Source: Nitrososphaerota archaeon (GTDB lineage Archaea; Thermoproteota; Nitrososphaeria; Nitrososphaerales; Nitrosopumilaceae). Taken from it: a stretch of DNA of 64,000 bases. Location of the stretch: positions 740,727-804,726 of the forward strand of contig JAGWFT010000001.1 in assembly GCA_028867755.1 (NCBI GenBank), in the 5' to 3' direction. The position numbers were made by a program, and so were the translations under genes. The notes below the pieces were generated by a model. It made no database searches. It had not been told where the DNA came from and was given only the letters and a program-made list of their open reading frames with translations. Positions 1,221 to 6,757 of this stretch are shown here, in pieces; position 1 is the stretch's first letter, and each line of letters begins with the position of its first letter.

Positions 1221-1511
1221 CTACTGCCAAGTTATCTTTAGGAATACCAGGGAGCCAGCAAGCTGTACTATGCGAACAATCAGAACAAACGGCAAGAGTG
1301 CAGCCTGATACAAGTCAAACATGACGAAGTATGTGTATACATTGATTGCATTATCTAAAAAGAGCATTGCAACAAAAAAGATCATTCCAAGGTGAACCTG
1401 TGATTTTGTTTTTGAATGCATCTTTACAAAGGTAGCAATTAGAACGCTGAATACTCCCATGTTTGCCATTGCAACAATGGCACAGTATGGAATAATTGTG
1501 ATCAAACTCAT
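1221..1511 (-). CDS. Small 3-TM Met-rich membrane protein of unknown function
   Basis: Three hydrophobic stretches; ends LVFLKITWQ; 12 bp downstream of the wHTH pair, same strand. Confidence 0.75.
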   Translation of the reverse strand: MSLITIIPYCAIVAMANMGVFSVLIATFVKMHSKTKSQVHLGMIFFVAMLFLDNAINVYTYFVMFDLYQAALLPFVLIVRIVQLAGSLVFLKITWQ

Positions 1512-1523
1512 TCACCCTGTAAT

Positions 1524-1943
1524 TTACTTGTCTCTGTACAAGTTTGCAGCAAGCTCATCAAAGATAGCAATGTTTACCTCAAGAAAAGTGGAAAGAAAAT
1601 AGGTTGTACCATACTTTTCACCCACGTGTGACACTAGGTTATTTTTTTCGAGAACTCCAATGTGATGCTGTATTGCCCTATAGTTTAGTTCAAGCTCTTT
1701 TGCAAGTTGGTGTGCATTGAGCGGTGACTTTTTCAATGCAAGAACCATTCTTATTCGGTTCTGACCTCCTCGAGAATTTGCAAATACCATCCATAGTAAA
1801 TTCTTTGCATAGGGTAACTCTGTGTCCTTTTGGTTCGAATCTTCTACAGTTCTATGATTGTGATATGATGATACAGTATCAAATGTGCGCATAGTGGCAT
1901 CTTTACGTGATAACATAAATACATTTTTCAAGATTGAGTGCAA
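1524..1943 (-). CDS. ArsR-like winged helix-turn-helix regulator (paralogue 2; start uncertain, TTG 1943 or a later ATG)
   Basis: PYAKNLLWMVFANSRGGQNRIRMV...NAHQLAKELELNYRAIQHHIGVLEKNNLV...GEKYGTTYF. Confidence 0.85.
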   Translation of the reverse strand: MHSILKNVFMLSRKDATMRTFDTVSSYHNHRTVEDSNQKDTELPYAKNLLWMVFANSRGGQNRIRMVLALKKSPLNAHQLAKELELNYRAIQHHIGVLEKNNLVSHVGEKYGTTYFLSTFLEVNIAIFDELAANLYRDK

Positions 1944-1946
1944 ATT

Positions 1947-2252
1947 CTATTCCTTGGCTCCATAGGCTTTCGACACGATTTCATTATATGCTTCTATATT
2001 GGCTTCAAAAAAGGTAGAAGGGAAATAGGTTGTACCATATTTCTCACCGACTTTTGTAATGAGGTTATTTTTTTCTAGTACCTCGAGATGATGCTGTATT
2101 GCCCTATAGTTTAATCCTAAATCATTTGCCAACTGGTTGGCATTGCGTGGAGACTTTTGTAATGCAATCATGATCTTGACTCTATTTTCTCCGCCTCTTG
2201 AGCTGGCAAAGATAAAAAAGAGAAGATTTTTTGCATATGGCAAGCTCGGCAT
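1947..2252 (-). CDS. ArsR-like winged helix-turn-helix regulator (paralogue 1)
   Basis: PYAKNLLFFIFASSRGGENRVKIM...NANQLANDLGLNYRAIQHHLEVLEKNNLI...GEKYGTTYF. Confidence 0.9.
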   Translation of the reverse strand: MPSLPYAKNLLFFIFASSRGGENRVKIMIALQKSPRNANQLANDLGLNYRAIQHHLEVLEKNNLITKVGEKYGTTYFPSTFFEANIEAYNEIVSKAYGAKE

Positions 2253-3708: not shown

Positions 3709-3738
3709 GACATGGTTCTGCTTATAAAATTATATAGC

Positions 3739-3773
3739 AATATTTCAAAATCAAGTGTAAATTATATGCAAAT
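3739..3773. promoter_or_regulatory. 35-bp motif copy 1, upstream of the 456-aa cupredoxin gene
   Basis: aatatttcaaaatcaagtgtaaattatatgcaaat; 32/35 identical to 4501-4535; directly upstream of a TATA-like tatataat on the minus strand. Confidence 0.7.
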
Positions 3774-3933: not shown

Positions 3934-4464
3934 TTAGTTGATTCTCGGAAGGACCACTATCTCGCCACGCATGTTTGGCTCGTGCATTGAACACCAAAAG
4001 TCGATTGTTCCAACATTGTCTGCTGTAAAGGTAATGGTTTTCATCTCTCCTCTATGAATGTCAAACTGGGGAGCAATTCCGTCTACAGTTATCATATGTT
4101 CTGGTCCCTGGACATCTACAAAGTTGAGAGTAACTTGGTCGCCTTGGTTTACAACAATTACTGAAGGTGCAAACATGTACTGCCTTACCTTCCATCCTCC
4201 CATACTATCTATTTTTTTTATTACCAAGCCGCCTCCAGAGGGAAGGGTTGAGTTTGGATATGGCTCTGACGGGTGATCGGAGGCTGGATAAATGCTGGTT
4301 ATACCATCTAGGTGGACTGTTGCTATGTAGAATGTCTTTTGTGACGCGGCAGAAGCCGTATTGGTTTGTCCGAACATTTGTCCTTCAAGAGAAACCGTGG
4401 CAATGACTCCAGCTATTGCAGCTATTGTCAGGCCAAGAATTACACTCTTGTTTAGATTTTTCAT
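3934..4464 (-). CDS. Exported single-domain cupredoxin (blue copper protein)
   Basis: Signal peptide; YMFAPSVIVVNQGDQVTL, EHMITVDG, FWCSMHEPNMRGEIVV (H, C-x2-H-x3-M). Confidence 0.85.
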   Translation of the reverse strand: MKNLNKSVILGLTIAAIAGVIATVSLEGQMFGQTNTASAASQKTFYIATVHLDGITSIYPASDHPSEPYPNSTLPSGGGLVIKKIDSMGGWKVRQYMFAPSVIVVNQGDQVTLNFVDVQGPEHMITVDGIAPQFDIHRGEMKTITFTADNVGTIDFWCSMHEPNMRGEIVVLPRIN

Positions 4465-4500
4465 ATAGTCAAAAAGTAATTTATTAGAAAGCTATTTAGT

Positions 4501-4535
4501 AATATTTCAAAATGATGTGTAAATTACATGCAAAT
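4501..4535. promoter_or_regulatory. 35-bp motif copy 2, upstream of the 176-aa cupredoxin gene
   Basis: aatatttcaaaatgatgtgtaaattacatgcaaat; begins 37 bp from the start codon (copy 1 is 31 bp). Confidence 0.7.
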
Positions 4536-4572: not shown

Positions 4573-4590
4573 GTAATTTGCATGTAATTT
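4573..4590. promoter_or_regulatory. Inverted partial motif copy 3 (perfect 18-bp inverted repeat of 4521-4538)
   Basis: gtaatttgcatgtaattt is the reverse complement of aaattacatgcaaattac; followed by ttttgaaa and a TTTATG TATA-like box at about 4602. Confidence 0.7.
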
Positions 4591-4628
4591 TGAAAAATCT
4601 CTTTATGTTATTATGATATTAGAATCTC

Positions 4629-4677
4629 GGTTCGATTCATTTAACATGTTCTCAACCCCGTACGATTGAATCGAACC
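4629..4677 (+). other. RNA-like hairpin (11-bp stem, 27-nt loop) in the long leader of the repeat-protein gene
   Basis: ggttcgattca (4629-4639) pairs with tgaatcgaacc (4667-4677). Confidence 0.45.
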
Positions 4678-4815
4678 AACTAAAATTTTCAAAAATTCGA
4701 AATAAAACTATTATTTGTTTCCAGTAATATGTCGCATCATGCAGTTGTGATTTGTATAAAATTTGTATGTGAATTCGAAATATCGCTAAATAATAAATTT
4801 TTAATCTTGCTGTCA

Positions 4816-5475
4816 ATGACTAAAAAAATACTATTGGGAATTGCTATGGCAGCAATTGTGTTGGCCTTGGGGATAGGAACACAAAACTTTGCTCTAGCAA
4901 TGACAGACAATGCACAAGGTGGTGTTGCTAAAAATGTATCATCTCCAACATTTGTATCATCCACTGATTCCATGATGTTAGTGGCAACTTCGCCCACTGC
5001 TAAAGGCGGTAAGGCTACTTTCGCATTGGTACCAAGACCTGCTGAAGGGATAGATGGAATACCAGTTCCAAAACAAGCTGCACCTGATATGATACTGGTT
5101 GCAACATCAAATGGTAGACATATCAGTTATACGTTAGTACCAAGACCCATTGAAGGGATAGATGGAATACCACTTCCAAAACTAATTCAGCAGAACTCAG
5201 AGACTACAGTATCCTCTCCCAAATCTACTGATCCAAGTCCTATGATGCTTGTGGCAATTTCTCCTACTAAAAAGGGAGGAAGTACTACCTTCATGTTAGT
5301 GCCAAAGCCAGTCGAGAATGTAGATGGAATACCAATGCAAAAACAGACAAGTCCTGACATGATACTGGTTGCACAGCCATCGCCCAATGGCGGTAAGCCT
5401 ATCTTCACATGGATACCAAAACCTGTTGAAGGTATAGACGGTATACCACTCACAAAATCGCCTCCAAATAGCTGA
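4816..5475 (+). CDS. Secreted 219-aa protein with four internal repeats (M[MI]LVA...G...[FY]x[LW][VI]P[RK]PxE[GN][IV]DGIP), unknown family
   Basis: MTKK plus hydrophobic core plus ALA signal peptide from ATG 4816 (track start 4729 adds a non-signal-like extension); repeats start at 4972, 5089, 5242 and 5359. Confidence 0.85.
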   Translation: MTKKILLGIAMAAIVLALGIGTQNFALAMTDNAQGGVAKNVSSPTFVSSTDSMMLVATSPTAKGGKATFALVPRPAEGIDGIPVPKQAAPDMILVATSNGRHISYTLVPRPIEGIDGIPLPKLIQQNSETTVSSPKSTDPSPMMLVAISPTKKGGSTTFMLVPKPVENVDGIPMQKQTSPDMILVAQPSPNGGKPIFTWIPKPVEGIDGIPLTKSPPNS

Positions 5476-5505: not shown

Positions 5506-5537
5506 TAAAACACGAAAGATCAATCTCTCGTGTTTTA
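5506..5537 (+). terminator. Hairpin downstream of the repeat-protein gene (terminator or operator)
   Basis: taaaacacga / tcgtgtttta 10-bp inverted repeat; a T-rich tract follows at about 5575-5584. Confidence 0.4.
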
Positions 5538-5701: not shown

Positions 5702-6757
5702 ATGACAGATCTTTATCGTGTACTGCCAGAGGAGGTAGACAAGCTTGTAACAAGTATGGAGCAGCCGCGTTATCGAGCAGATCAGCTACTCCACATGCTG
5801 TACAATGAGTTTCCAAAGGACATATCTTCAATGCGCCAGCTTCCCGCAGAGATGAGAAATGCACTATCTACGGCAGGATACACAATTGGGTCTGCAGACG
5901 AAGTTCACCGTGTTGTAAGCGAGGATGGGCAGACAACAAAGCTTCTTCTCAAGCTAGGTGACGGAACTCTTATCGAGACAGTACTCATGCAATATCGCAA
6001 GAATAAGGGGCGTCCAAGATCAACTGTATGCGTCTCAACCCAGGTTGGCTGCCAGATGGGTTGCACATTCTGCGCTACCGGGCAGATGGGTTTTGAGCGA
6101 AATCTCAAGGCAGAAGAGATAGTCGCCCAAGTATTGCACTTTGCTTCTGTTCTCAGAGAACGGGGAGAGCATGTCACCAACCTTGTCTTTATGGGGATGG
6201 GGGAGCCCCTGGCAAATTATACAGAAACTATCAGGGCAGTCAAACTACTGACAAATGCACGTGCGTTTGGTCTTGGACAAAGACACATTACAATTTCAAC
6301 AGTCGGTGTCATGAAAGAAATAGATCGGCTTGCAGACGAAGACCTGCAGATAGGACTTGCAATCTCTCTTCATGCACCAAACGACGAGCTGCGTAGAAAA
6401 TTAGTACCAACTGCAGGACCGCATTCGGTAGGAGACTTGATCTCAGCTACGCGAAGCTATTTCAAGAAGACAGGTCGTCGTGTTACATTGGAATATGCCC
6501 TGATAAACGGTGTTAACGACTCACCAGAGATTGCAGCAGAACTTGCGACACTCTTGAAGGGAAATGGGGCTCATGTTAATCTCATACCGGTGAATCCAAC
6601 TGCTGGTGGTTTTCAACGTCCAAGATGGAAACGCATAACAGAATTCGAGCGAATACTAAGGGAATCTGATGTGAATTGTACTGTAAGGGTGGAAAAAGGG
6701 TCAGAGATCTCTGCCGCCTGCGGTCAACTAAGGACAGACACAGCAAAGAATCTCTAG
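5702..6757 (+). CDS. rlmN: Radical SAM RNA methyltransferase, RlmN/Cfr family
   Basis: CVSTQVGCQMGCTFCATGQMG (CxxxCxxC), FMGMGEPLAN, ISLHAPN, NLIPVNP, C-terminal ISAACGQL. Confidence 0.93.
   Translation: MTDLYRVLPEEVDKLVTSMEQPRYRADQLLHMLYNEFPKDISSMRQLPAEMRNALSTAGYTIGSADEVHRVVSEDGQTTKLLLKLGDGTLIETVLMQYRKNKGRPRSTVCVSTQVGCQMGCTFCATGQMGFERNLKAEEIVAQVLHFASVLRERGEHVTNLVFMGMGEPLANYTETIRAVKLLTNARAFGLGQRHITISTVGVMKEIDRLADEDLQIGLAISLHAPNDELRRKLVPTAGPHSVGDLISATRSYFKKTGRRVTLEYALINGVNDSPEIAAELATLLKGNGAHVNLIPVNPTAGGFQRPRWKRITEFERILRESDVNCTVRVEKGSEISAACGQLRTDTAKNL

Follow-up and report, generated by a model that had tools for sequence, protein, structure and literature searches.

The window, a stretch of 64,000 nucleotides from a Nitrososphaerota archaeon, contains near its start a compact group of genes in which a predicted secreted repeat protein is encoded next to two cupredoxins and two regulators. 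The features of the locus are as follows (coordinates refer to the window):

1221..1511, minus strand: 96-aa hydrophobic membrane protein, at the position of the PF26119 (DUF8036) genes in related loci (assigned by position)
1524..1943, minus strand: second ArsR-family regulator, a tandem paralogue of the next one; its start is probably at about 1892, giving about 122 aa as in the homologues
1910-1946, minus strand: P2-like copy before the second regulator gene
1947..2252, minus strand: ArsR-family (HTH_5) winged-helix regulator, 101 aa
2338..3708, minus strand: 456-aa protein with an N-terminal anchor, a Met/His-rich linker, two beta domains, and a C-terminal plastocyanin-type cupredoxin
3731..3773, minus strand: 43-nt element before the 456-aa cupredoxin gene
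3934..4464, minus strand: 176-aa cupredoxin, membrane-anchored or secreted (C-x2-H-x3-M and an upstream His), the invariant divergent neighbour (Pfam, locus comparison)
4493..4535, minus strand: the same 43-nt element before the 176-aa cupredoxin gene
4573..4611, plus strand: P2, a shorter variant of the element that faces the repeat gene and forms a perfect 18-bp inverted pair with the operator of the 176-aa cupredoxin
4629..4676, plus strand: conserved hairpin downstream of P2, with a 12-bp stem, a variable C-rich loop, and two compensatory pairs
4750..4792, plus strand: P3, the copy of the 43-nt element that belongs to the repeat gene (two ATTTGYAT-N3 units, TTCGAAATAT, and a CTAAATA box)
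4816..5475, plus strand, stop codon included: coding sequence of the repeat protein (P0001), 219 aa (translation, homologues, dN/dS 0.19-0.32)
4816..4899, plus strand: putative signal peptide, aa 1-28 (basic n-region MTKK, then a hydrophobic core and A-L-A ahead of Met29; sequence, AlphaFold helix at aa 5-17)
4972..5073, plus strand: repeat R1, type A, aa 53-86, a hairpin followed by P-R-P-A-E-G-I-D-G-I-P (translation, DNA repeat finder, AlphaFold)
5089..5181, plus strand: repeat R2, type B with a shorter turn, aa 92-122 (translation, DNA repeat finder, AlphaFold, BLASTP)
5242..5343, plus strand: repeat R3, type A, aa 143-176 (same evidence as R2)
5359..5457, plus strand: repeat R4, type B, aa 182-214 (same evidence as R2)
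5506..5537, no strand assigned: terminator-like hairpin (z = -3.6) and a short T run past the stop codon of the repeat gene

The true start of the repeat gene is ATG 4816 rather than the upstream ATG 4729, as indicated by the N-termini of its homologues, all of which begin with M-T-[KR]-K-I-L, and by the conserved promoter, the end of which lies about 21 nt upstream of ATG 4816. The longer open reading frame from ATG 4729 is an artefact, and the N-terminal "extension" F-V-x-E-F-E-I-x-L-N-N-K-F that some gene callers assign to three proteins (P0003, P0010, and P0024) is translated promoter. The protein is predicted to be exported or secreted by means of its putative signal peptide, and an AxA-type cleavage site is retained in most homologues. 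A linker of about 24 residues separates the putative signal peptide from the first repeat. The mature protein would comprise about 191 residues, of which 14% are Pro and 4.7% Met, with a single His and no Cys.

A first-pass annotation of this DNA described four repeats arranged as a duplicated A-B unit with similarity at the DNA level, and the open reading frame, its coordinates, and all four quoted repeats were confirmed; the repeats are about 33 residues long. The DNA repeat finder places four 99-nt copies in one family (61-72% identical). BLASTP aligns the first A-B unit with the second (aa 52-122 versus aa 142-214) at 63% identity (E = 9e-31), and type A with type B repeats at E = 2e-13; such significant alignments indicate that the repetition is real and not compositional. 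The AlphaFold2 model of the full protein (14-sequence alignment; pLDDT 55, pTM 0.18) consists of an N-terminal helix and four beta-hairpins, one per repeat, in agreement with the hairpin repeats proposed earlier. When the A-B unit is modelled by itself from 36 aligned units, it consists of two clean hairpins (pLDDT 86, pTM 0.40) with a small bridge inside each acidic turn. Confident intramolecular or globular packing is predicted neither for the full protein nor for the A-B unit, and the strands are hydrophobic on both hairpin faces. Searches with the A-B unit model found no structural relative, either with Foldseek (best E = 1.4) or in an exhaustive VIA-align comparison with 48,161 chains (no Z>=2); as the model consists of two separate hairpins, both missing matches are weak evidence. 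A complex prediction for the 176-aa cupredoxin (aa 40-176) and the A-B unit returned a score of 0.00, which is no answer and counts neither way.

Strands that are hydrophobic on both faces and do not pack confidently within the molecule could belong to a self-assembling surface or matrix fibre, in which hairpins would stack between molecules as cross-beta or a beta-solenoid and the Pro-rich acidic turns would act as gatekeepers; a repeat number of two or four, reached through duplication of the unit, points in the same direction. Such a fibre is nevertheless improbable. The turn is better conserved than the strands, the conserved partners of the gene are cupredoxins and regulators, and no nucleator, chaperone, or secretion genes lie alongside: curli- or Fap-type nucleator and export genes were not found beside the repeat gene, whose neighbours are cupredoxins, ArsR-type regulators, and DUF8036 proteins.

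Residue conservation was counted in a set of 99 repeats that derive from 33 members and include a few regex artefacts. The best-kept columns of strand 1 are Leu (87/98) and Val (85/98), while the two glycines of the turn (within KGG) are kept in 86 and 72 of 98-99 repeats. Each hairpin is followed by the motif P-[KR]-P-x-E-[GN]-x-D-G-I-P, a proline-flanked acidic turn, in which P-[KR]-P after strand 2 is present in 89, 93, and 87 of the 99 repeats and the acidic-turn columns retain Glu in 74, Asp in 80, Gly in 73, and Ile in 69. Met occupies the first two positions of strand 1 in 58/98 and 42/98 repeats, a loop His occurs in 35/98, and the strand-2 residue between the conserved hydrophobics is variable (Met 27, Thr 26, Gln 13, His 9, Ala 7). 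Among the residues initially described as invariant (Met, Pro, Glu, Asp, and DGIP), conservation of Pro, Glu, Asp, and D-G-I thus holds for the family, but that of Met is limited to P0001. The accompanying proposal that Met serves as a conserved metal ligand was not borne out: family members differ freely at the Met and His positions, and the idea of Met ligation is weakened accordingly. There may be a carboxylate-based site, with the Glu and Asp of E-x-x-D-G-I as the conserved polar residues that might form it. Conserved Met/His (or Trp) ligand positions of the PcoE/SilE, CusF, or CopC type were not found in the repeat family; nor were EF-hand, dockerin, or RTX motifs (a D-x-[DN]-x-D-G-x-I...[DE] loop or a G-G-x-G-x-D nonapeptide) or any corresponding Pfam match. 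In contrast to calcium-binding loops, the turn E-[GN]-x-D-G-I-P contains only two acidic residues and has Ile directly after Gly.

These residue patterns bear on the possibility of an extracytoplasmic metal buffer or sponge similar to the disordered PcoE/SilE proteins. Its Glu/Asp turns, together with Met/His where these occur, would capture Cu or a different cation and either shield the cupredoxins or provide them with metal. In favour of this idea are the conservation of Glu and Asp, which exceeds that of all other polar residues, the M-M...T-H-K-G-G...F-M pattern of most type A repeats, the Met content of the mature protein, the cupredoxin neighbours, the Met/His-rich linker of the 456-aa protein, and a CsoR-type (Trns_repr_metal) gene near one homologue. 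However, the candidate Met/His ligands are replaced by Leu, Ile, Trp, Gln, Thr, Lys, or Ala in many members, the window copy has one His and no Cys, and no metal-binding family is matched; we consider a dedicated metal buffer unlikely.

The protein had been described as unassignable to any known family, and this stands after searches of Pfam, NCBIfam, PDB sequences, Foldseek, VIA-align, and the ESM Atlas. Pfam gives no family at E<=1 for the whole protein and a single noise match (E = 0.04) in a scan of 36 single A-B units; NCBIfam yields noise at the level of the signal peptide (13 bits against a cut-off of 197), and the best ESM Atlas feature score (0.77, TM<=0.28) is noise as well. A match to TAL effectors in a profile search of PDB sequences (summed E of about 1e-5) was rejected as a chance likeness amplified by repetition, no stretch of which passes alone. 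Within the searched length band, 24 homologues were found, none of them named, and their record titles refer to metagenomes and to metagenome-assembled genomes of "Thaumarchaeota archaeon" or "Nitrosotalea sp." When 1.84 billion representatives were searched with a profile built from the A-B unit, 14 matches were obtained, of which 11 are true members. The other three are repeat-inflated false positives, two of them recognized by inspection of the sequence (P0033, 1509 aa, eukaryote-like; P0036, 1013 aa, helical repeats) and one judged from its short matched stretch (P0035, 3084 aa). The same search found no genuine fused or longer forms of the family. Members contain either two repeats (A-B, 120-129 aa) or four (A-B-A-B, 205-241 aa), and many end in the tail P-x-P-x-L-A-D-[HY]-S-S in place of E-G-I-D-G-I-P. 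Duplication appears to have had more than one history in the tree of A-B units, many forks of which are weak.

Within its own genus, 7 of 61 genomes contain the repeat gene; of 150 genomes sampled from the family's other 26 genera, none does. Five unpublished genomes (G077 and G187-G190), none of which carries the repeat gene, are part of these counts. No cultured-strain genome was identified among the carriers, and the three single-contig genomes of the genus do not contain the gene. A literature search found nothing on the repeat gene or on the cupredoxin island described below. The repeats define a family that is undescribed and very narrow in its distribution; as far as the searches reach, it is limited to a minority of the genomes of Nitrosotalea-like, i.e., acid-loving ammonia-oxidizing archaea. 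Pairwise dN/dS between the gene and its orthologues is 0.19-0.32, compared with 0.08-0.15 for the neighbouring cupredoxin: the gene is under purifying selection, constrained yet fast-evolving. Together with the motif positions kept in the homologues, these values agree with the earlier suggestion of a functional protein rather than a low-complexity spacer.

The genomic neighbourhood was compared in eight loci, namely the window, six loci with DNA, and one gene table (the P0022 contig). The repeat gene is divergent from an adjacent 176-aa cupredoxin gene in all eight. In seven of the eight (the window, L011, L014, L016, L018/L019, L024, and the P0022 contig), the locus also contains a long cupredoxin (about 455 aa; 344 aa as called in L024) and ArsR-family HTH_5 regulators, usually two; in the eighth, L023, the contig ends just past the 176-aa cupredoxin. 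The PF26119/DUF8036 membrane protein is encoded in five loci (L011, L014, L016, L018/L019, and L024). The cupredoxin arrangement holds even beside repeat homologues that are just 35-41% identical. Of the 61 genomes of the genus, 11 encode an orthologue of the 456-aa protein, among them every carrier of the repeat gene with an assessable contig. In the window, the two ArsR-type regulator genes (1524-2252, minus strand) share a 248-nt direct repeat (71% identical). The start of the second is probably at about 1892, as its listed TTG start overlaps the P2-type promoter copy at 1910-1946. One distant homologue of the repeat gene is followed, about 1.2 kb further downstream, by a CsoR-type gene (PF02583, Trns_repr_metal; L024:9130-9387, minus strand), the sole gene of an explicitly copper-sensing type seen near any copy. 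Distant relatives of the 176-aa cupredoxin (about 40% identical) are found in a second genus; at the single locus inspected there (L027), the repeat gene was not found beside the cupredoxin.

The downstream flank, on the other hand, varies between loci: it comprises an RlmN-like gene in the window and, elsewhere, genes for a beta-propeller, SAICAR synthase, Flavodoxin_2, or a methyltransferase, or small unknown ORFs. The repeat gene is the terminal gene of a relocating accessory island, which is present in approximately one in six genomes of one genus. An empty-site test revealed no clean insertion scar; the nearest island-free genomes regain homology at about 5618, just before the RlmN-like gene. 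This RlmN/Cfr-like radical SAM gene (5702-6757, plus strand) occurs in 53 of the 61 genomes of the genus at 72-91% identity, a count that includes the five unpublished genomes, all of which contain it. Its distribution marks it as a resident genus-wide gene and not a recent singleton acquisition, and in the other carriers it is located on different contigs from the island. A link between the repeat gene and the radical SAM gene was therefore rejected, given the variable flank and the unlinked position elsewhere.

The rejection of this link also affects the suggestion, made when the repeats were first noticed, that the protein is an exported multi-core precursor cut at the P-x-E-G-I-D-G-I-P junctions into peptides of about 30 residues, which might be modified. 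Junction motifs that are invariant next to more variable interiors would suit such a precursor, as would the radical SAM gene that follows in the window. However, the latter is RlmN-like, genus-wide, and unlinked in other carriers, and the loci examined share no protease, transporter, or modifying enzyme next to the repeat gene; moreover, a Sec-type signal peptide is not the usual leader of prokaryotic ribosomally synthesized and modified peptides (RiPPs). A multi-core precursor is very improbable.

The strongest functional clue is the element shared by the upstream regions of three genes. In its general form, the 43-nt element consists of two ATTTGYAT-N3 units, TT[TC]GAAATAT, and a CTAAATA box located about 21-25 nt before the ATG. 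It is matched three times in the window against an expectation of zero, and its 19-nt core occurs at exactly three sites of the 1.64-Mb genome, before both cupredoxins and the repeat gene. Every upstream region that was read for the repeat gene and the 176-aa cupredoxin contains the conserved element, and six of seven loci have it in front of the long cupredoxin as well. The repeat gene, with the element present and the 176-aa cupredoxin gene adjacent, would form an exclusive regulon with the two cupredoxin genes. As P3 ends about 21 nt before the ATG, the mRNA of the repeat gene is probably leaderless or near-leaderless. The regulon is presumably controlled by the island's own winged-helix proteins; these regulators contain no evident metal-sensing Cys or His, and to call them copper-responsive is an assumption. 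P2, the hairpin, and an A/T run also occur at seven other loci (L011, L014, L016, L018, L023, L024, and L020). Rfam has no match for the hairpin downstream of P2, which may serve the island as a small RNA or attenuator.

Variants of the island limit the role that can be proposed for the repeat protein. In genome G121, which is 99% complete, the island is still present together with P2 and the hairpin, but P3 and the repeat gene are absent. As the island is otherwise intact, the repeat protein is dispensable and the cupredoxins do not need it. In this genome (L020, G121:C3:22000-32000), a purF-purL-AsnC flank is found in reverse orientation and on the other side of the island compared with L014; this points to an inversion, at the breakpoint of which the repeat gene and its promoter would have been lost. 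The 176-aa cupredoxin orthologues of L014 (7114-7644, minus strand) and L020 (5027-5557, minus strand) have lost the type-1 copper Cys and the upstream His: compared with the window, W-C-S-M-H is changed to W-S-S-x-H and P-E-H-M to P-G-Y-K. They are otherwise about 86% identical to the cupredoxin of the window and constitute a conserved variant that is predicted to be copper-less. An association between loss of the repeat gene and loss of the copper ligands, both found in G121, was considered and rejected: L014 combines the ligand-less cupredoxin with an intact two-repeat gene. The same combination makes a role restricted to metalating that cupredoxin unlikely. An invariant stretch of the 176-aa cupredoxin, I-T-V-D-G-I-A-P (aa 125-132, after the His ligand), resembles G-I-D-G-I-P-x-P of the repeats. 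Derivation of the repeat hairpin from a cupredoxin hairpin was rejected (hhalign probability 1.2%), the likeness being confined to the short V-D-G-I-A-P and I-D-G-I-P.

We tentatively favour, at somewhat less than even odds, the reading that the repeat protein is an optional, extracytoplasmic, multivalent partner of the two-cupredoxin regulon. A promoter that is unique in the genome and shared with two neighbours of the blue-copper type suggests that the protein probably acts with them outside the cell. It would be co-produced with both cupredoxins under the island's own regulators and would act between the membrane and the S-layer as a flexible "beads-on-a-string" partner. A hydrophobic hairpin face and an invariant Glu/Asp turn would be available on every module; hydrophobic faces that lack confident intramolecular packing fit binding to something else. 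The modules might bind the cupredoxins, a partner of the cupredoxins, or metal cations, and the protein might cluster, tether, or buffer the components of the cupredoxin system, with a valency set by duplication of the A-B unit. A bolder version, in which the module represents a new extracellular docking or metal-handling unit, i.e., a valency-tunable scaffold that organizes archaeal blue-copper proteins outside the membrane, or polymerizes there, under a dedicated operator/regulator circuit including a small structured RNA, seems decidedly unlikely on present evidence. If true, it would constitute an undescribed way to assemble extracytoplasmic redox or copper machinery in ammonia-oxidizing archaea.

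The energy metabolism of ammonia-oxidizing archaea runs on poorly understood extracytoplasmic copper proteins, and to our knowledge almost nothing is established about the organization, metalation, and regulation of these proteins. As the island is accessory and the repeat gene was lost in one lineage, it does not belong to the core nitrification machinery. The locus is nevertheless a compact, self-contained, and testable unit: a genome-unique promoter precedes three of its genes, and two dedicated regulators, a candidate small RNA, and a membrane protein complete it. Among its members, only the repeat protein is without a recognizable fold or family, and the novelty lies at the level of the protein family and the module.

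Several known systems invite comparison. The periplasmic metal sponges PcoE and SilE are small, exported, and largely non-globular proteins with short repeated motifs, encoded in metal or copper clusters with dedicated regulators; the repeat protein is likewise small, predicted to be exported, non-globular, and repetitive, and its gene lies in a copper-protein cluster with regulators. However, PcoE and SilE are helical when metal-bound and are defined by conserved Met/His motifs, whereas the repeat protein is predicted to form beta-hairpins, does not conserve Met or His, and has no sequence match to them. CsgA and FapC are Sec-exported proteins with imperfect strand-turn-strand repeats in variable number, and the repeat protein resembles them in its putative export signal, its strand-turn-strand repeats, and its variable repeat number. 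It differs in having no Q/N ladder, no csgB/E/F/G or fap-type accessory genes, and no corresponding Pfam match, and the strongest conservation of its family is in the acidic turn. In the case of TAL effectors, a short LVA-x-S-N-G-G-K stretch resembles the loop of the TALE repeat, but TALE repeats are helical, intracellular, and DNA-binding. Cellulosomal scaffoldins provide an analogy only: their modules are folded cohesins of about 150 residues, compared with about 33 residues here, the two are not homologous, and the partners of the repeat protein are candidates. In both, however, tandem modules are joined by flexible Pro-rich linkers, occur in variable copy number, and are (presumably so for the repeat protein) co-expressed with their candidate clients.
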